Source: Candidatus Doudnabacteria bacterium (GTDB taxonomy: Bacteria; Patescibacteriota; Doudnabacteria; UBA920). From it: 64,000 bases of DNA. The notes beneath the pieces are model-generated. The model was not told where the DNA came from and did not search any database. It saw nothing but the letters and a program-made list of their open reading frames with translations. Shown one piece after another: positions 8,841 through 19,241 of this stretch. Position 1 is the first letter of the stretch; every line of letters starts with the position of its first letter. The stretch is taken from positions 21,347-85,346 of the forward strand of contig JACRDK010000004.1 of the NCBI GenBank assembly GCA_016218585.1, in the 5' to 3' direction. A program made the position numbers and the translations under genes.

Positions 8841-9197
8841 TTATATTACGTCGGTTAAGCCTTCAATTTTGTCGCCCTTTTTCAAAGTGACAATGGCTTT
8901 TTTAAAAGATGAGGTTCTGCCGCTGCGCTGGCCAAAGTTTCTCTGTTTGCCGCGGTTGATTACCATATTCACCTGCAAAACTTTTACCTTATAAGCATCT
9001 TCAACAGCTTTCTTAACTTCCACTTTGTTTGCGCCCATGCCAACTTTAAACACGTACTTGTTTAGTTTAACTAAGTGGCCGGCTTTCTCGGAAATTCTCG
9101 GGCTTACCAACACGCTAGGAATCCTAATGGCTGGGGCTCCGGCTGTTTCAGTTGCCTTTTCGGCAGTTGTAGTTTTCTTCTTGCTAATAATAGCCAT
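8841..9197 (-). CDS. rplW: 50S ribosomal protein L23 with an N-terminal extension
   Basis: Gene order, with a KYVFKV...core. Confidence 0.75.
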   Translation of the reverse strand: MAIISKKKTTTAEKATETAGAPAIRIPSVLVSPRISEKAGHLVKLNKYVFKVGMGANKVEVKKAVEDAYKVKVLQVNMVINRGKQRNFGQRSGRTSSFKKAIVTLKKGDKIEGLTDVI

Positions 9198-9202
9198 AAA
9201 AA

Positions 9203-9856
9203 TTACTTAACGTTATTCTTCAAATAGGTTTTTTCAATAACCTGCAAGCTGTCCTTTAATACTATCATGCTATCGGCTTTCAAGATATCCAGAAGATTCA
9301 GGCTGCTAGCTAATATTGGAGTGACAAAAGGGAGATTGCGGGAGCTGCGGACTAATTTGTCGTCTTTCTTTGCCATGACCAACAATTGCTTTTTGCCGGA
9401 ATTTTTTACGGCATTCTTTAAGCCGTCTAAAATTTTGGCCATATCTTTGGTCTTTGGATTTTCCATGGAAATCTGATCGACAACTATGAACCGGTTTTCT
9501 TTAGCCTTGTCGGAAAGAGTCATAAACAAAGCCTGAACTTTAGCTTTTTTATTCAACTTTAATTCCCAATTGCGGTTGCTGCGCGGTCCAAAGGTTACTC
9601 CACCATGACGCCAAATCGGGCTGCGGGTGCTGCCAGCTCTAGCTCGGCCGGTACCTTTTTGCTTCCAAGGTTTTTTACCGCCACCAGATACTTCACCGCG
9701 GGTTTTGGTATGAGCAGAACCCTGGCGGGCATTTGACTGTTGGATGCGAACCGCTTCCGCGAGCAAATGAGTTTTAGGCTTAACGTCAAAGATTTTGGAA
9801 TTTAATTCCACATCCCCGACAACTTCCGCTTTTTGGTTGTAAAGATTTACTTTCAT
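9203..9856 (-). CDS. rplD: 50S ribosomal protein L4
   Basis: 217 aa with a Gly/Arg-rich loop (KQKGTGRARAGSTRSPIWRHGG). Confidence 0.85.
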   Translation of the reverse strand: MKVNLYNQKAEVVGDVELNSKIFDVKPKTHLLAEAVRIQQSNARQGSAHTKTRGEVSGGGKKPWKQKGTGRARAGSTRSPIWRHGGVTFGPRSNRNWELKLNKKAKVQALFMTLSDKAKENRFIVVDQISMENPKTKDMAKILDGLKNAVKNSGKKQLLVMAKKDDKLVRSSRNLPFVTPILASSLNLLDILKADSMIVLKDSLQVIEKTYLKNNVK

Positions 9857-9932
9857 AACTTGAGTGAATTAGTGATACACAGATCTAGTGAGTTAGTTAT
9901 CTAATTCTCTAACTCTCTTTTTCTCTAGCTTG

Positions 9933-10598
9933 CTACTTCTTTTTCTTATCGTCTTTTACTTTAGGAATTATTACTAAAGGTTTAACTTTTCCGGTGGAAA
10001 TAACTTTTATAGTTCCATTTCTGTGTCCCGGAACCGCACCCTTTAAAGTAATTAAATTATTTTTAGCATCAACTTCGACAATCTGTAAATTCTTTACTGT
10101 AACCTGCTCAACGCCCATATGTCCGGACATTCTTAGGCCCCTGCGGGTATGCTGAGGAAAACGTTGACCAATGGAACCGACAGAGCGGGGCTTGTTATGA
10201 CCGTGGCTGGCTGGGAAACCGGCGAAACCGTGGCGCTTCATTGCACCGGCGAAACCGCGTCCCTTACTTATGCCAATAACATTAACCACTTCACCCGGAA
10301 CAAAGCTGCTAATTTCCAATTTCTGTCCGCGTTCGTATTTGTCGTTTTCGCCTACGCGAAATTCCGACAAAACGCCAAAAGTACCCAAATCCTTTAGGTG
10401 TCCCTGTAAAGATTTAGATACTTTTTTCTTTTTGTCGATACCGACTTGCACTGCATTATATTTATCTTTGCCACCGGCAGACTTAACCTGGGTAACAACC
10501 ATAGATCCGGCCTTAACAACAGTAACCGGAATTACTTCGCCGGTTGCTTCGTCAAAATACTGAGTCATATTGAGTTTCTTGCCTATCAAAAAGTTCAT
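9933..10598 (-). CDS. rplC: 50S ribosomal protein L3
   Basis: LIGKKLNMTQYFDEATGEVIPVTVV. Confidence 0.9.
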   Translation of the reverse strand: MNFLIGKKLNMTQYFDEATGEVIPVTVVKAGSMVVTQVKSAGGKDKYNAVQVGIDKKKKVSKSLQGHLKDLGTFGVLSEFRVGENDKYERGQKLEISSFVPGEVVNVIGISKGRGFAGAMKRHGFAGFPASHGHNKPRSVGSIGQRFPQHTRRGLRMSGHMGVEQVTVKNLQIVEVDAKNNLITLKGAVPGHRNGTIKVISTGKVKPLVIIPKVKDDKKKK

Positions 10599-10821
10599 AG
10601 TTTGGTAATAAGTTAAAAAAAACGGGCCGATTTGCCCGTAAGTATCAACACGGAATCAATACCATGTTGGTTCTTGCTGGTAAATCGTTGTCCCATTGGT
10701 TGACCCGTTACGACGGGTTTGGCCTATGAGAACTAATTTCCAAATAATTTGATTGTTTTATTTGCGCAATCTACGCCCGCCTGCAACGCATATGCGTAGC
10801 ATTTCGGGCAGGTATCTGCGA

Positions 10822-11145
10822 TTACGACATCTTAATCTCTACATCCACACCGGCCGGAAGATTTAAGTTAGTAAGGGCGTCGATGGTTTTAGGAGTTGCG
10901 GAAACTATATCAATTAATCTTTTATGAACGCGCATTTCAAACTGTTCGCGGCTGTCTTTGTGAACGAAAGTAGAACGAAGTACTGTGTACTTAGTTTTTT
11001 CCGTAGGCAGCGGAATTGGGCCTGAAATAGTCGCCCCGGTCCTTTTGGCCGTGTCAACAATTTGTTTAGAGCTCTGGTCAATAAGCTTATGATCGTAAGC
11101 TCTAATCTTTATACGAATTTTGGGAGCGGCTGGTTGCTTGTCCAT
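10822..11145 (-). CDS. rpsJ: 30S ribosomal protein S10
   Basis: [17 protein letters not shown]. Confidence 0.9.
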
Positions 11146-11376
11146 TTGTTAAGATGCTCTTAACTTGATTAATATGGGCTACAAAACAAGGCTTTTTAAA
11201 GCCCTTGTAGCACTTGCAATATTTTATACGAACCCTGAGATTTTGTCAAATAGCAAATCTGCTCAAAACCTAAATGACCAAATGCCAATTATCCACCCCA
11301 AAACAGCTTAAAAATATGCTTTTACCTCTGTTTTTCACAAATTCCGCTTAATTATAAGCATTTTCAGTAAAAACCA

Positions 11377-11405
11377 TTGACAAAATACTTAAAAAATGCT
11401 ATAAT
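11377..11405 (+). promoter_or_regulatory. Near-perfect sigma70 promoter, TTGACA-17 bp-TATAAT, driving the small ORF at 11443
   Basis: TTGACA at 11377-11382, a 17-nt spacer and TATAAT at 11400-11405. An AAGGAGGG ribosome-binding site lies 8 nt before the ATG. Confidence 0.6.
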
Positions 11406-11442
11406 CTTTGGGTTAAATTTCCTTTAAGGAGGGAGAATAGAA

Positions 11443-11688
11443 ATGACTGTAAGGATAGAGCGACTGGCTGTGAGAATGTCAATTTTCCTCTATGGCATTC
11501 TGAACGCGATTTTCGTGGGCATCGCCTATAAGCCGGCCATGTCCTACACAAAAAGCTCATCGGGAGAGTTGGCAAACCTGCTGACGATGCTTCTGATTGA
11601 AGCCCTTGTGTTGTTCAACCTCGCGATAGCGGCAACAGCCCTACTCATGAGGCTTGAGAAAAAACCTGACGCCACGACTCAAACGTAA
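11443..11688 (+). CDS. Small hydrophobic protein (81 aa, two predicted TM helices), antisense to the ribosomal-protein and tuf genes
   Basis: Consensus promoter, strong ribosome-binding site and two tandem terminators; local GC is higher than the surroundings. Confidence 0.55.
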   Translation: MTVRIERLAVRMSIFLYGILNAIFVGIAYKPAMSYTKSSSGELANLLTMLLIEALVLFNLAIAATALLMRLEKKPDATTQT

Positions 11689-11719
11689 ACAACCCGGGCT
11701 TGCCCGAGATGGCAAGCAG

Positions 11720-11806
11720 ACAGCGCAGACCTTTACCGGCCTGCGCTGTTTTCAATTTCTTAATACAAACTAAAACTCCCCTCGCGAAAGCGGGGGGAGT
11801 TTTTTC
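11720..11806 (+). terminator. Tandem rho-independent terminators
   Basis: CAGCGCAG...CTGCGCTG+TTTT, then CTCCCCTCGCGAAAGCGGGGGGAG+TTTTTT. Confidence 0.6.
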
Positions 11807-11845
11807 TACAAGCTAATTACTACTTACTACTAACTAGTAATTAAG

Positions 11846-13033
11846 CTATTTGATGATTTTAGTAACAACACCAGCGCCTACGGTATGGCCACCTTCGCGA
11901 ATAGCGAATTTGCCTTTTTCTTCCAAAGCGACCGGAGTAATTAATTTCACAACCAACTTTACGGTGTCTCCTGGCATAACCATTTCCTGACCTTCCGGCA
12001 AGGTAACGTCACCAGTAACATCGGTGGTGCGAATATAGAATTGCGGCTTATAACCCTTAAAGAACGGGGTATGGCGTCCGCCTTCTTCTTTGCTCAAAAT
12101 ATATACTTCGGTTTCAAACTCGGTATGAGGAGTAATGGAACCCGGTTTGCACAAAACTTGTCCGCGTTCTACTTCTTCTTTCTTAGTACCGCGGAGCAAA
12201 ATTCCTGCGTTGTCCCCTGCCATACCGCTGTCCAACTGCTTGTTGAACATTTCGATACCGGTAACAACAGTCTTAGTTGTTGGCTTTAAACCAACAATTT
12301 CAATTTCATCGGATAATTTAATTTCACCGCGTTCGATTCTACCGGTAACTACGGTACCGCGTCCTTCAATGGAGAAGATGTCTTCAATCGGCATTAAGAA
12401 CGGTTTGTCGGTTTCGCGCTTCGGATCCGGGATGTAGGTGTCCAAATATTCAACAAGTTTCAAAATGGAACCTTCGCCCATTTCAGAAGTGTCTCCTTCC
12501 AAGGCTTTCAAAGCAGAACCGCGAACAATCGGGGTGTCTTTGCCTGGGAATTCGTATTTGGTCAAAAGGTCGCGAATTTCTTCTTCAACCAATTCCAAAA
12601 GTTCAGCATCCTGAACCATATCGCACTTGTTCATGTAAACAATAATGTAAGGAACACCTACCTGCTTGGCTAACAAAATGTGTTCGCGAGTCTGCGGCAT
12701 AGGACCGTCAGTAGCGGATACAACCAAGATGGCTCCGTCCATTTGAGCAGCACCGGTAATCATGTTCTTGATATAGTCGGCGTGTCCCGGACAGTCAACG
12801 TGGGCGTAGTGGCGCTTAGCGCTTTCATATTCCACGTGAGCAGTGTTAATGGTAATACCACGGGCTTTTTCTTCCGGGGCATTGTCAATGCTGTCGTAGG
12901 CGCGAGCCTTGGCTCCACCAGTTTTAGACAGAACTGTAGTAATAGCAGCAGTAAGGGTGGTTTTGCCGTGGTCAACGTGACCAATGGTACCAACGTTTAC
13001 GTGCGTTTTGCTACGGTCAAATTTGTCTGCCAT
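11846..13033 (-). CDS. tuf: Elongation factor Tu
   Basis: [15 protein letters not shown] and the full-length EF-Tu sequence. Confidence 0.95.
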
Positions 13034-13459: not shown

Positions 13460-13816
13460 CTATAAATCTTCCATATCCATCTTTGGGCCTTCAAAGTCAA
13501 AACTCGGATCTATGACCTCAGCGCGCAAATCCACCCTGGGAAATGCCCGCTCGCTAATTATAACCGGCCCTTTAACCGCCGCCTCGGGAACAGACGGCGC
13601 GGGCGAAACAGGAGCCTCTTCCTGTAATTGCGCATTTAAAATTTCCCTATTTATTTTTTCAACATCCAAAATTTGTTTTTGCAGTTTTCCCAGCAGCAGG
13701 CGCTGATATTCCGCCAGCGGCAAAATTACCAATTGTGTCTCCCCTGTTTCATCAATAACAAAAAACTTGCCTCCATCGGCCTTGGCTAAATTTATAATAT
13801 CCTTTAATGAATTCAT
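13460..13816 (-). CDS. Hypothetical protein; the N-terminus weakly resembles a Phd/YefM-type fold (QLVILPLAEYQRLL)
   Basis: 118-aa ORF; motif similarity only. Confidence 0.35.
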   Translation of the reverse strand: MNSLKDIINLAKADGGKFFVIDETGETQLVILPLAEYQRLLLGKLQKQILDVEKINREILNAQLQEEAPVSPAPSVPEAAVKGPVIISERAFPRVDLRAEVIDPSFDFEGPKMDMEDL

Positions 13817-13951
13817 GATTTTTCTTTCTTAATTTCCCGCCAGGGGCGGGCATTCCCTAATTTCATTCTCATTATACGCCTCTTAGAAAGGCTTTACAAC
13901 TTTCTAAATAATTTGGTATTCTTGGGACTAGAATTTTGCAGGAGGATTGCG

Positions 13952-14320
13952 ATGTTGATTGTTTGTAAGGTGTTTGCTGTTTTGGTTTTTTATCACTCAG
14001 CGTCCTTTATGCATGCTGCCATAAATATGTTAATTTACAGAAACTTACCTAGCAGCGAAAGGAAAACTTCTGGCCCAATAACAAAAGCCTTCCACCTCGG
14101 AATTGCCATTTTGGCAACGACTCTTCTCCCCCCCTCACAAATCACAATACAAGAACTAGCCTTAGCAATTTTGGTTTATGCTGGCACGGCCATCTGGTGT
14201 TTTAACAAGGCAGTGAAGCACGTAAAGGATCAAAAAACGAGAGAGGCAAATGTATTTGGCGGTACTGGGATAGCGTTTATGTCGTTAGTTTTTTTCTTTT
14301 TTGGGTTGTGCTTGGTGTAG
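13952..14320 (+). CDS. Hypothetical membrane protein (about 122 aa, roughly 4 TM helices); start moved to the ATG preceded by AGGAGG
   Basis: gcAGGAGGattgcgATG; a hairpin plus T-run terminator lies at 14353-14400. Confidence 0.5.
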   Translation: MLIVCKVFAVLVFYHSASFMHAAINMLIYRNLPSSERKTSGPITKAFHLGIAILATTLLPPSQITIQELALAILVYAGTAIWCFNKAVKHVKDQKTREANVFGGTGIAFMSLVFFFFGLCLV

Positions 14321-14550
14321 AACCTCCTTACCGCAAAACAAGAACAGCTTTGTGCCGGCGGGTCCGTAAGGACTCCGCCGGCATCATCATTTTTATATTT
14401 TATAAATTGTGCAGATTTGGACGATCGTCAGAATATGTACAAAGATAAAAATGTAAAATACTCTGAAAGCTCTAAATTTAAAACAGGCCAATGCAATCGC
14501 ATTGGCCTGTTTTTATCTGTACTATCTGTTCCCATCCGTAATCCGTGATT

Positions 14551-16671
14551 CTACATACCTTTTCTAACATTGATGCCGGCGCGGGATTCAATAATCTTTT
14601 CCGCTACGTTCTTCGGCACTTCAGCGTAATGGTCAAATTCCATAGTATAGCTGGCTTGACCCTGGGTCATAGAACGCAAGGCTGTGGCGTAACCGAACAT
14701 TTCGGACAACGGCACAAAAGCGTCAATAATCTTTAAGTGCAAGCGGTCAGTCATTTCATTAATCTGAGCGCGTTTGCTGTTTAAGTCTCCGATTACGTCA
14801 CCCATGTTTGTTTCCGGAGTGGTAACTTCAACTTTCATAATCGGTTCCAAAATAATTGGGGTAGCTTTTTTAACAGCATCCTGCAAACCCTTGGAAGCGG
14901 CAATTTTGAAAGCCATTTCCGAGGAGTCAACTTCGTGGTAGCTACCATCGAACACAGCAGCTCTAAAGTCTACCAATGGGTAACCGGCAATAACGCCGTT
15001 TGCGGCAGATTCCTGAATACCTTTGTCGATTGGCTTGATATATTCTTTTGGAATAACACCACCAACAACTTCATCCACGAATTCATAACCCTTGCCGCGC
15101 TCAAGCGGTTCAACGCGAATATAACAATGTCCGTATTGTCCGCGTCCACCAGTCTGGCGAATGTATTTGCTTTCCGCTTCGGCAATCTTCTTAATGGTTT
15201 CCTTGTAAGCTACTTCCGGCTTACCAACGTTAGCTTCCACTTTAAACTCGCGCTTCATGCGGTCAACAATAATTTCCAAGTGCAATTCACCCATACCGGC
15301 AATAATTGTCTGCTGGGTTTCTTCGTTAGTGGAAAGTTTGAAGGTCGGATCTTCTTCAGCCAATTTAGACAAAGCAATGCCCATTTTTTCCTGGTCAGCT
15401 TTGGTCTTCGGTTCAATGGACATGGAAATAACCGTGTCGGCAAACTTGATAGTTTCCAAACGAATCGGCTTTTCTACATCGCACAAAGTATCTCCGGTAA
15501 ATGTTTCTTTTGGTCCCACAAGGGCGCAAATATCTCCGGCAAAAACTTCTTTAACTTCATCGCGCTGGTCGGCACGCATACGGACAATACGTCCAACGCG
15601 TTCTTTGTTGCCGGTGCGGGCGTTAAGAACATAAGAACCGGCTTCCAATTTTCCCGCGTACACGCGGAAGAAACACAAGCGTCCAACGAACGGGTCGGTG
15701 GCAATTTTAAAAGCCAAAGCTGTAAATGGTTCTTCGTCGGAAGGCTTTCTTAAAATTTCCGCATCGGTTTTTAAGTCATGGCCTTTTACCACGCCGCGGT
15801 CAACCGGGGAAGGTAAAAAGTTAACAACGGCGTCAAGAATTTTTTGAACAATAATTCCGCGTCCGTCGCCGCCTAAGACCGGGAAGAATTTTCCGCCCTG
15901 AACGGCTTTGCGAATTGCAACCAAGAATTCATTTTCTGTGAGTTCTTGTCCGCCTAAATATTTTTCCATTAAGGCGTCATCGCTTTCAACTACTTTTTCA
16001 AGCAACTTATGGCGATATTCCTTGGCTTTTTCCAGCATATCGGCCGGCACTTCGCCAACGGTAAACTCTTTGTCGGTAAAATCTTTATAGGTGTAGGACT
16101 TCATATTAATAAGGTCAACTACGCCATTGATATCTTTTTCAAAACCAATCGGCAACTGAATTGGGAAAGCATTCGGGGAAAGGCGCTTATGAATAGAATC
16201 CAAAGACTTATAAAAATCTCCGCCAGTTTGGTTGATTTTGTTAATGAAGCACATGCGAGGCACCTGGTATTTATCGGCCTGGCGCCAAACAGTTTCACTT
16301 TGCGGTTCTACACCCATTTTTCCATCAAAGACAACAACCGCGCCGTCGAGAACGCGCAAACTGCGTTCTACTTCCACGGTAAAGTCCACGTGGCCCGGAG
16401 TGTCAATAATGTTAATTTTGTGCTTAACGTCCCCTGCCAATTTAATAAAGCGGGGGGTCCAGTAGCAGGTAACGGCGGCGGAGGTAATGGTAATACCGCG
16501 CTCGCGTTCCTGTTCCATCCAGTCGGTGGTAGTTTCACCTTCGTGCACCGCGCCAATCTTGTGAATCATACCGGTGTTATACAAAACACCTTCGGTGACG
16601 GTGGTTTTACCGGCATCAATGTGGGCAATAATTCCAATATTGCGGGTTACTTCTATAGGATATTCTCTCAT
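14551..16671 (-). CDS. fusA: Elongation factor G
   Basis: [12 protein letters not shown] and the full 706-aa EF-G sequence. Confidence 0.95.
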
Positions 16672-16864: not shown

Positions 16865-17431
16865 TTAGCGGCGGCCAAAACGCGCAAAGTGGGCAAAAGC
16901 TTTGTTGGCTTCAGCCATACGGTGTACATCTTCGCGTTTCTTCATAGCGCCACCGGTCTTGTTGTATGCATCCATAATTTCACCGGCAAGTCTTTGCGCC
17001 ATAGGAGAACCTTTTTTGGCGCGGCAGGCGGCCAATAACCAGCGCATGGCTAAAGTGGTGCGGCGAGGTTCCATAACTTCCATTGGTACCTGATAGTTAG
17101 CACCGCCAATGCGGCGGGATTTTAATTCCATAATTGGGGAAACATTTTTTAAAGCAATATCAAAAACCTGGCGGCCTTCCAACACTGCCGGCTTTTCTTC
17201 TTTTGCCGGTTTTTCTCCGGTTGTTTTAGAAGCCGTTGTGGCTGTAGCCGGGGCGGTTAGAGTAGCGGCTTTTTCGCCGACTATGTCTAATGCATCGTAA
17301 AAAATCTTGCGGGCAACATTCTTCTTGCCGCGTTCCATTAAATAGTTAATGAATTTTGCATATTTAACCGAGCCGTAACGAGGGTCCGGTTCTGGAACGT
17401 GTTTATCGTAACTTCTGGATTTTCTTGGCAT
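16865..17431 (-). CDS. rpsG: 30S ribosomal protein S7 with an Ala/Thr/Lys-rich internal insertion of about 35 aa
   Basis: MPRKSRSYDKHVPEPDPRYGS. The protein is 188 aa against about 156 aa normally. Confidence 0.9.
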   Translation of the reverse strand: MPRKSRSYDKHVPEPDPRYGSVKYAKFINYLMERGKKNVARKIFYDALDIVGEKAATLTAPATATTASKTTGEKPAKEEKPAVLEGRQVFDIALKNVSPIMELKSRRIGGANYQVPMEVMEPRRTTLAMRWLLAACRAKKGSPMAQRLAGEIMDAYNKTGGAMKKREDVHRMAEANKAFAHFARFGRR

Positions 17432-17519: not shown

Positions 17520-17933
17520 TTATTTTCTCTTCGTTCCGTATTTAGAACGGCTTCTCTTTCTCCCGTCGACTCCGAGAGTATCTAGCTTTCCGCGAACAAT
17601 GTGATAACGGACACCGGGAAGATCTTTTACACGTCCGCCGCGGATCATTACTACGCTGTGTTCCTGTAAGTTGTGGCCAATACCCGGGATGTAAGCAATA
17701 ACTTCCATTCCGTTGGTAAGTTTGACCTTAGCCACTTTACGCAAAGCCGAGTTCGGCTTTTTAGGCGTTGTGGTATAAACCTTTAAACAGACACCGCGCA
17801 TAAACGGGGCGCCGGTTTTTATGAACAATGTCTTGTTCTTTATCAAGTTCTGCCTGCGCATTAACGCCGGAGACTTGCTTTTGGTTTTAAGAGGGCTTCT
17901 GCCTCTGCGAACCAATTGATTGATTGTTGGCAT
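17520..17933 (-). CDS. rpsL: 30S ribosomal protein S12
   Basis: [12 protein letters not shown]...[10 protein letters not shown]. Confidence 0.95.
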
Positions 17934-18310
17934 TTTTTCTCCACCAATTCTCGAATTAACACTAATTTCACGAATACTACTTAGTATAATTCGCGATGAT
18001 TAGTGAATTCGTGGATAAATTATTTTCTTGAATACTTTAAATAGCCATAAAAAAACTGACAAAAGATGTCAGATCTTTCGCGCTCGCCTGCTTGGTACTC
18101 ATCAGAAACCTTTTGATGTTTCTTCCCTCCCCTCCTAAGGGGAGGGTGAAGGGAGAGGTTGTCTTCCCAAAACTTGCGACTAATAAATAGTGATTCAATC
18201 GCCAATACGCTGATATGCACAGATTGCGCGGATTTCTGCATCCGTGTTATCTGTTGCTATTTGCGTATTTGCGACTGGGCTTCTTATTCAATTAAACACA
18301 TTATACAGAA

Positions 18311-18339
18311 TTGACTTTAATCTGTCAATTTGCTACGAT
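18311..18339 (+). promoter_or_regulatory. Candidate sigma70 promoter (TTGACT-17-TACGAT) upstream of the Cys-rich ORF
   Basis: Spacing and sequence only. Confidence 0.35.
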
Positions 18340-18972: not shown

Positions 18973-19010
18973 CTTAGACATTGACAAATGCTCACAAATT
19001 CAGTAAAGTA

Positions 19011-19241
19011 ATGCCTATGCCAGTTTTAGTACCGCTTGTTGATGAAGTCATCGGCTGTAAGGTTATTGCCATAAACGGCAAAGCCGTATCAGTAAATGGC
19101 GAAATTGCCGTAGAAGGAGGAATGGTCAAAAGATGTTGGGTGGAGAGAGGACACAAGTTCTATAAGTTGCTTGACCCGACAACCCGCTCGGAGTTTCCAA
19201 GCTACTTCCGGGCTTCGGATTTCACTACTGTCGACGGATAA
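19011..19241 (+). CDS. Hypothetical small protein (about 74-76 aa), possibly leaderless
   Basis: TTGACA (18981)-17-TAAAGT lies immediately before the ATG codons at 19011 and 19017; a terminator follows at 19265-19305. Confidence 0.4.
   Translation: MPMPVLVPLVDEVIGCKVIAINGKAVSVNGEIAVEGGMVKRCWVERGHKFYKLLDPTTRSEFPSYFRASDFTTVDG

Follow-up and report, generated by a model that had tools for sequence, protein, structure and literature searches.

In the Candidatus Doudnabacteria genome analyzed here, an environmental MAG of the CPR, a small gene for a predicted 81-amino-acid (aa) membrane protein lies between rpsJ and tuf, antisense to both. It is probably a strain-specific accessory gene that was acquired horizontally, is transcribed autonomously in the manner of a moron, and sits in a hot spot flanked by core genes. 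Within the Doudnabacteria clade, the tuf-rpsJ spacer forms a hot spot at which genes turn over. All coordinates given here refer to the window, the whole 64,000-nucleotide (64-kb) stretch of DNA that was analyzed. Its minus strand carries rpsL (17,520-17,933), rpsG (16,865-17,431), fusA (14,551-16,671), a 118-aa gene (13,460-13,816), tuf, encoding EF-Tu (11,846-13,033), and rpsJ (10,822-11,145), which is followed by the S10/spc ribosomal genes. The antisense position between rpsJ and tuf, as described in the earlier note on this DNA, was confirmed. The tuf-rpsJ gap measures 700 bp in the window and is no longer than 321 bp in 49 of the 52 bacterial genomes that have both genes on one locus.

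Exact-protein look-ups supplied relatives whose EF-Tu is 93-95% identical. L081, the sister of the window in a neighbor-joining tree of tuf, has an S10 protein identical to that of the window and a tuf gene with 90.8% nucleotide identity. Its tuf-rpsJ spacer is empty (313 bp), with both flanks homologous to those of the window, and the spacers of L087 (391 bp) and L091 (325 bp) are empty as well, so that the uninterrupted junction, which the earlier note proposed to look for in other strains, does exist. Among 11 clade junctions, these three are empty and eight hold differing, mutually unrelated open reading frames (ORFs), many of them antisense and secreted or membrane-bound. This cargo comprises a 160-aa ORF in L083 (minus strand), a 109-aa ORF in the partial locus L084 (plus), ORFs of 103 aa (plus) and 67 aa (minus) in L085, ORFs of 98 and 183 aa in L086 (minus), a doubtful 132-aa ORF in L088 (plus), ORFs of 168-184 aa in L089 and L090 (minus), and a 207-aa TPR protein with a 109-aa ORF in L001 (minus). 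None of these resembles the 81-aa protein, and the only likeness among them is a shared signal peptide. The relatives thus do not carry the gene, and the same arrangement as an ordinary conserved gene, named beforehand as a possible refutation, was not encountered. The filled and empty states differ even within the sister pairs L085/L087 and L088/L091. The promoters of antisense cargo genes match the consensus at 12 of 12 positions in L085 and at 11 of 12 in L083 and L089, and several antisense cargo genes have a third-position GC content (GC3) above that of the host core genes and encode a signal peptide or a transmembrane (TM) segment.

Three of these loci share a further arrangement. In L083 (5,236-5,974), L086 (5,475-6,274), and L089 (5,050-5,825), the promoter of the antisense gene stands back-to-back with the rpsJ promoter, and a long inverted repeat in the 5' region of the antisense gene covers its start codon. 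The encoded proteins begin with a signal peptide of the form M[TP]NKL...LCAQQ or ...ASCGTQ and show no relation in their mature parts. Together, these features suggest that a conserved head for expression and export is joined to a variable cargo.

The limits of the insert were determined by blastn and by MAFFT alignment of the junctions, according to which 11,304-11,767 (plus strand) is specific to the window and is represented by 84 bp in L081. The left boundary is formed by the ancestral promoter and leader of rpsJ (S10 operon; 11,146-11,303, minus), a segment that all relatives retain and that shares 85.5% identity with L081 across 159 bp; the rpsJ promoter itself (TTGACA-17-TAAAAT, 11,249-11,221, minus) matches the consensus at 11 of 12 positions. 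Because the homology of 11,304-11,399 to L081 is weak, with some similarity reaching the -35 region (11,375-11,399), the minimal insert is placed at about 11,400-11,767. The insert would hold the promoter (at least its -10 element), the Shine-Dalgarno (SD) sequence, the ORF, an extra hairpin, and one terminator, and GC content is 0.48 over 11,400-11,766 versus 0.32 over 11,146-11,399. Around the insert, a search for target-site duplications and terminal repeats returned short repeats at chance level, and the tuf-rpsJ site is marked neither by an integrase or tRNA gene nor by flanking repeats, whether direct or inverted. Within the rpsJ leader (11,146-11,220, minus), which is conserved among the relatives, a hairpin with a U run (11,205-11,188) followed by GTTTTG may function as an attenuator of the S10-leader kind; Rfam gave no match for the leader. 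The divergent promoters of the cassette and rpsJ have 10 nt in common, TTGACAAAAT (11,377-11,386 and 11,240-11,249), comprising the -35 element plus 4 nt. At 10 nt, this identity is too short to serve as an argument for a duplication.

The expression signals of the cassette are strong. What had been described as a near-consensus promoter (TTGACA-17-TATAAT, 11,377-11,405, plus) matches the sigma-70 consensus at all 12 positions and has an extended -10 TG; transcription would start near 11,412. Only one other exact 12/12 site occurs in the 64 kb, and it is the promoter of the rpsL operon. Sites with at most one mismatch number six, versus 0.44 expected (none of 100 shuffles reached six), and four of them lie upstream of rpsL, tuf, rpsJ, and the 81-aa ORF. 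Because near-consensus sites are enriched and placed in this way, the sigma-70 consensus is meaningful in this genome. The SD sequence AAGGAGGG (11,426-11,433, plus) stands 9 nt upstream of the ATG at 11,443, and its duplex with the anti-SD, at -11.6 kcal/mol, is stronger than those of 98% of 52 resident genes (mean, -1.6 kcal/mol). The resident genes mostly have no SD sequence, and rpsJ and tuf have essentially none.

At the 3' end, a GC-rich hairpin with no U tract (GCTTGCC-6-GGCAAGC, 11,698-11,717, plus; -12.0 kcal/mol) lies just past the stop codon. It is followed by T1 (11,720-11,762, plus), a unidirectional intrinsic terminator that lies within the insert and belongs to the cassette. The T1 stem (11,720-11,749, -20.1 kcal/mol) has arms of 12 nt, of which the minimum free energy fold pairs 10 outer positions, and is followed by TTTTCAATTTCTT. 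T2 (11,772-11,809, both strands) has a 14-bp stem (11,772-11,803, -25.4 kcal/mol) followed by TTTTTT on the plus strand; on the minus strand it also folds and is followed by TTTT, directly downstream of tuf. A homologous hairpin stands directly 3' of tuf in L081, L087, L089, and L091. Because it folds on both strands and its position is conserved in relatives, T2 is resident DNA outside the insert, a bidirectional terminator shared with tuf. The two structures had been taken for tandem terminators of a self-contained unit. Both do fold strongly (z = -7.5 for the terminator region), but the cassette is not fully self-contained, since T2 belongs to tuf. T1 and T2 were both found by folding, a simple terminator scan having missed them.

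The ORF itself (11,443-11,688, plus), an ORFan, was assessed by its SD sequence, GC3, codon score, and hydrophobicity. The NCBI annotation has a 70-aa version starting at M12 ("hypothetical protein HY918_00370"). The 81-aa start is preferred because the position of the SD sequence supports the ATG at 11,443, and the gene caller of the Logan assembly likewise called 81 aa. GC content at the three codon positions is 0.48, 0.40, and 0.62, an excess at the third position that was reached in 0.5% of permutations (p = 0.005), and the GC3 of 35 resident genes is 0.40 ± 0.04 with a maximum of 0.47. The annotated frame has the top codon score of the six and beats 95% of off-frame chunks from real genes. 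Its score of 0.00 versus 0.35 ± 0.14 nevertheless lies below every in-frame 81-codon chunk of 35 long resident genes. Because GC3 is far outside the resident range, this low score is read as foreign codon usage, which leaves room for a non-coding reading. Taken together, the SD sequence, the GC3 periodicity, the best frame, and TM-length blocks with basic flanks favor coding, and the gene looks foreign by its GC3, codon usage, and SD strength. The higher GC content that had been noted before is correct but modest (0.49 versus a window mean of 0.41, within the top 6.6% of 246-bp windows only), the sharp signal being GC3.

The ribosome-binding site and an 81-aa ORF with two TM helices, both part of the original description, are present. 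Two Kyte-Doolittle peaks exceed 1.6 (about residues 8-28 and 43-69), TM1 is placed at about residues 13-29 and TM2 at about residues 43-69, and the segregation of hydrophobic residues was reached by 94 of 20,000 residue shuffles (p ~0.005). AlphaFold models helices at residues 2-29 and 40-72 with a mean pLDDT of 73. The prediction is thus a helical hairpin within the cytoplasmic membrane, and, because both tails are basic, its N and C termini probably both lie inside.

Searches for relatives of this protein were empty throughout. A word-indexed search of 5.8 billion clusters matched the protein to itself only, and HMMER against 1.84 billion representatives returned itself and one spurious eukaryote-like repeat protein. 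Scans of JGI metagenome contigs and IMG/VR gave no match, nor did tblastn against phages (INPHARED) and plasmids (PLSDB). In Pfam, PHROGs, NCBIfam, and PADLOC nothing rose above threshold, the best sub-threshold families being DUF2301 (15.8 bits, cut-off 25) and phrog_3189 (E = 0.05). When all retrieved loci and the remainder of the window were searched with tblastn and blastn, the identical Logan contig alone was recovered, and exact-sequence look-ups of the S12 protein of the window and of the 70-aa annotated form returned no record. Foldseek comparison of the AlphaFold model with BFVD and PDB gave no match with E < 0.8, which is expected, the model being no more than a helical hairpin. In Rfam, searched with gathering and E-value thresholds, there were sub-threshold matches only, driven by the terminator hairpins. 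The earlier note would have given up its reading if there were no conservation anywhere and the region were AT-normal: conservation was indeed not found, but the region is not AT-normal. As a new gene for a small membrane protein that belongs to no family it is credible, and it is known from a single population, represented by one MAG and one run.

Several other explanations were weighed against horizontal acquisition of a protein-coding gene. Textbook signals can look designed and MAGs can be chimeric, so that an assembly chimera, contamination, or a synthetic insert might be suspected. However, an independent Logan assembly of run SRR12113407 contains a 2,908-bp contig that is 100% identical to 9,137-12,044 and spans L4-L3-S10, the cassette, and the 3' end of tuf. 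The flanks are moreover collinear with those of relatives, equally strong signals accompany antisense junction genes of environmental relatives (e.g., the L085 promoter), and no plasmid or vector match was found. Such an artefact is hardly credible, and the earlier suggestion of an engineered insert can be dropped for an environmental MAG whose sequence is reproduced in this way. The cassette could also have long been resident in the lineage and have been lost by deletion from L081 and other relatives; presence and absence alone give no direction of change, and the weak similarity to L081 over the -35 region would suit this reading. Yet the GC3, codon usage, and SD strength of the gene differ from those of resident genes, an orthologue was found in 0 of 10 relatives and nowhere among 15 billion proteins, and the empty junctions belong to three separate branches. 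Such a loss is therefore unlikely, and composition together with the three scattered empty junctions points to insertion rather than loss in L081. About equally unlikely is a functional or spurious non-coding RNA of ~350 nt in which the ORF is incidental. The unconserved protein, the codon score under that of all resident in-frame chunks, and the highly structured 3' end would agree with it. Against it stand an SD sequence among the strongest in the window, placed 9 nt before an ATG that opens an 81-codon frame, the GC3 periodicity and TM-length hydrophobic blocks (p = 0.005 and ~0.005), and the fact that no Rfam family came near its gathering score.

The toxin-like peptide proposed in the earlier note deserves separate consideration. 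In this reading, the product would be a toxin that depolarizes or permeabilizes the membrane, as a type I or type V toxin-antitoxin, abortive-infection, or holin-like effector does, and an antitoxin or regulator that has escaped notice would restrain it. A small hydrophobic two-TM product with basic tails, an accessory and variable locus, a possible dual start at M1 and M12, and the presence of HicA, GIY-YIG, and DUF559 selfish genes in the neighboring fusA-tuf slot of relatives are all compatible with this. However, a sequence scan of the cassette revealed no antisense RNA and no promoter-like site on the minus strand within 11,400-11,800, and a second ORF or partner gene is absent. The 5' untranslated region (5'UTR) contains no occluding fold, its folding being no better than that of shuffles (z = -0.18). 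Judged as a type I toxin-antitoxin system, the cassette therefore has neither the promoter of an antisense sRNA nor a translation-blocking mRNA fold; judged as a class II holin, it has the two TM segments and the small size, but its surroundings are not those of a phage and include no endolysin or lysis cassette. Typical type I toxins are shorter than 81 aa and two TM segments. No PADLOC, Pfam, or PHROG match supports a toxin, and a consensus promoter with a consensus SD sequence implies constitutive high expression, which would be intolerable for an uncontrolled toxin. A toxin is thus quite improbable, slightly more so than the RNA or the lost resident gene, and a constitutive role in the envelope or in exclusion is more likely.

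Horizontal acquisition into a core-flanked hot spot would have the following course. The gene would have landed past the tuf terminator and short of the rpsJ promoter, in spacer DNA that is not transcribed. Because no mobile-element signature is present, we infer that it entered through double homologous recombination within the two flanks, which are highly conserved. The consensus sigma-70 promoter and consensus SD sequence would then drive a monocistronic unit of ~340-390 nt, presumably at a high constitutive level. T1 would end the transcript, with the bidirectional tuf terminator T2 as a back-up, and the terminators would prevent antisense transcripts from running into tuf and read-through of tuf from reaching the cassette. 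The helical hairpin would insert into the cytoplasmic membrane with both ends inside, as modeled. There it could act as a constitutive envelope factor that protects or modifies the membrane, by analogy with the inner-membrane exclusion and immunity proteins of phage morons; this function, suggested by size, topology, and architecture, is put forward tentatively.

The similar islets reported before at 13.9 kb and at 18.3-19.3 kb are real. At 13.9 kb, an antisense ORF of 122 aa with four hydrophobic segments (13,952-14,320, probable start ATG 13,952) is preceded by the SD sequence AGGAGG (13,940-13,945, six nt upstream of the ATG, ΔG -10.3) and followed by a terminator-like hairpin at about 14,355-14,385. 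The stretch from fusA to the 118-aa gene (13,901-14,550) measures ~650 bp versus ~90 bp in L081 and is thus an insertion relative to L081. The islet at 18.3-19.3 kb holds a Cys-rich 108-aa ORF, a 68-aa two-TM ORF, and a 76-aa ORF, with promoters and terminators present. The 108-aa and 68-aa ORFs resemble the 81-aa gene in their strong SD sequences and GC3 (0.61 and 0.56), and no homologues of their proteins (W108 and W68) were found. Counting the 81-aa ORF, four of the five antisense islet ORFs (81, 122, 108, and 68 aa) have an SD sequence at -10 to -11.6 kcal/mol; the fifth, the 76-aa ORF (19,011-19,241), has none. The promoter of the 76-aa ORF (TTGACA-17-TAAAGT; 18,981-19,241 region) ends 5-6 nt before an ATG at 19,017, and its mRNA may be leaderless. 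In the region 18,300-18,339, the rpsL promoter (-35 at 18,328-18,323 and -10 at 18,305-18,300, minus) overlaps the promoter of the 108-aa gene (TTGACT at 18,311-18,316, 17 nt, TACGAT at 18,334-18,339, plus), and RNA polymerase occupancy of the two could be mutually exclusive.

The 118-aa ORF between fusA and tuf was also considered as an islet and was rejected, as it has the operon orientation and is conserved in all relatives. Its protein is 54-76% identical across 10 of 10 relatives, belongs to no Pfam family, and has conserved motifs at the N terminus (LINLAKADGGKFFVIDE) and C terminus (DLRAEVIDPSFDFEGPK). The gene would seem to belong to the str operon and to be specific to the clade. In relatives, the fusA-tuf slot contains genes of the selfish-element type (L083, 2,005-2,355; L087, 1,848-2,072; L088, 2,916-3,206), namely a DUF559 endonuclease-like gene, a HicA toxin beside a DUF7387 gene, and a GIY-YIG nuclease, as well as variable lipoproteins. 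Because of this cargo, the fusA-tuf junction is likewise regarded as a turnover site.

Transcriptionally, the stretch from the tuf terminator to the rpsJ promoter is neutral ground, and the two genes on either side are among the most conserved in bacteria. Genomes of CPR/Patescibacteria are small, and their lineage-specific genes are mostly unannotated. The locus offers a clean and bounded example of gene gain in this group, in which single foreign ORFan units with strong signals of their own settle in neutral spacers and turn over between near-identical relatives, amid the most conserved and most highly expressed operons. The 81-aa gene is a modest finding in itself, and the hot-spot pattern provides a handle on how CPR bacteria acquire small membrane and secreted proteins. 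A bolder and rather doubtful idea is that the str/S10 spacers (fusA-tuf, tuf-rpsJ, and upstream of rpsL) serve as dedicated high-expression slots for swapped, lineage-specific secreted or membrane ORFans, the 81-aa protein being one effector family. If so, the cargo of the slots would be a fast-evolving repertoire for surface, host-interaction, or anti-phage functions of an episymbiotic CPR bacterium, the slot promoters would often be consensus and divergent to those of the ribosomal operons, and the 81-aa effector family would be a previously unseen one. Should the cargo, which is mostly membrane or secreted proteins, serve in host attachment or in resistance to phages, the tuf-rpsJ spacer would also offer an easy, PCR-addressable marker of strain-level adaptive variation.

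Among known systems, phage morons come close. [quoted passage not shown] The cassette likewise has its own promoter and terminator, a GC content unlike that of its neighbors, a small membrane product predicted from its ORF, and a site flanked by two genes that lie side by side in related genomes. Unlike a moron, it lies in a cellular chromosome between ribosomal operons and not in a phage or prophage, and its protein resembles no phage protein in sequence or fold, which leaves exclusion as an analogy. The moron-like label of the earlier note thus holds for the architecture; the phage or plasmid origin attached to it does not, given the ribosomal-operon flanks and the lack of matches in PHROG, IMG/VR, INPHARED, and PLSDB. 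Hok, TisB, GhoT, class II holins, and T4 Imm, the last with ~83 aa and two TM segments, are comparable in size class and hydrophobic helical-hairpin topology. In contrast to such small membrane toxins and holins, the cassette comes with no antitoxin RNA or protein, lysis cassette, or homology, and its signals point to constitutive expression.

As for the site, hot spots of horizontal transfer that are free of mobile genetic elements, flanked by core genes, and maintained by recombination at the flanks have been described (Oliveira et al. 2017, PMC5635113). The tuf-rpsJ junction resembles them in its persistent core-gene borders, fast turnover, absence of an integrase, tRNA, or repeat, and conserved flanks suited to double homologous recombination. 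It differs in that one or two ORFs are held at a time, within 0.3-1.6 kb, and that these are almost entirely ORFans. In E. coli K-12, the same junction (tufA-rpsJ) also holds accessory genes (chiA, bfd, bfr, and gsp), and a Sodalis locus has a tuf-rpsJ gap of 2.3 kb. However, the genes of the E. coli K-12 block are annotated, occupy 16.9 kb, and remain constant across the species, whereas the Doudnabacteria junction studied here holds a single 81-aa ORFan and its cargo varies between close relatives. The cassette is therefore not a new kind of system; it is an accessory ORFan within a hot spot bordered by core genes.
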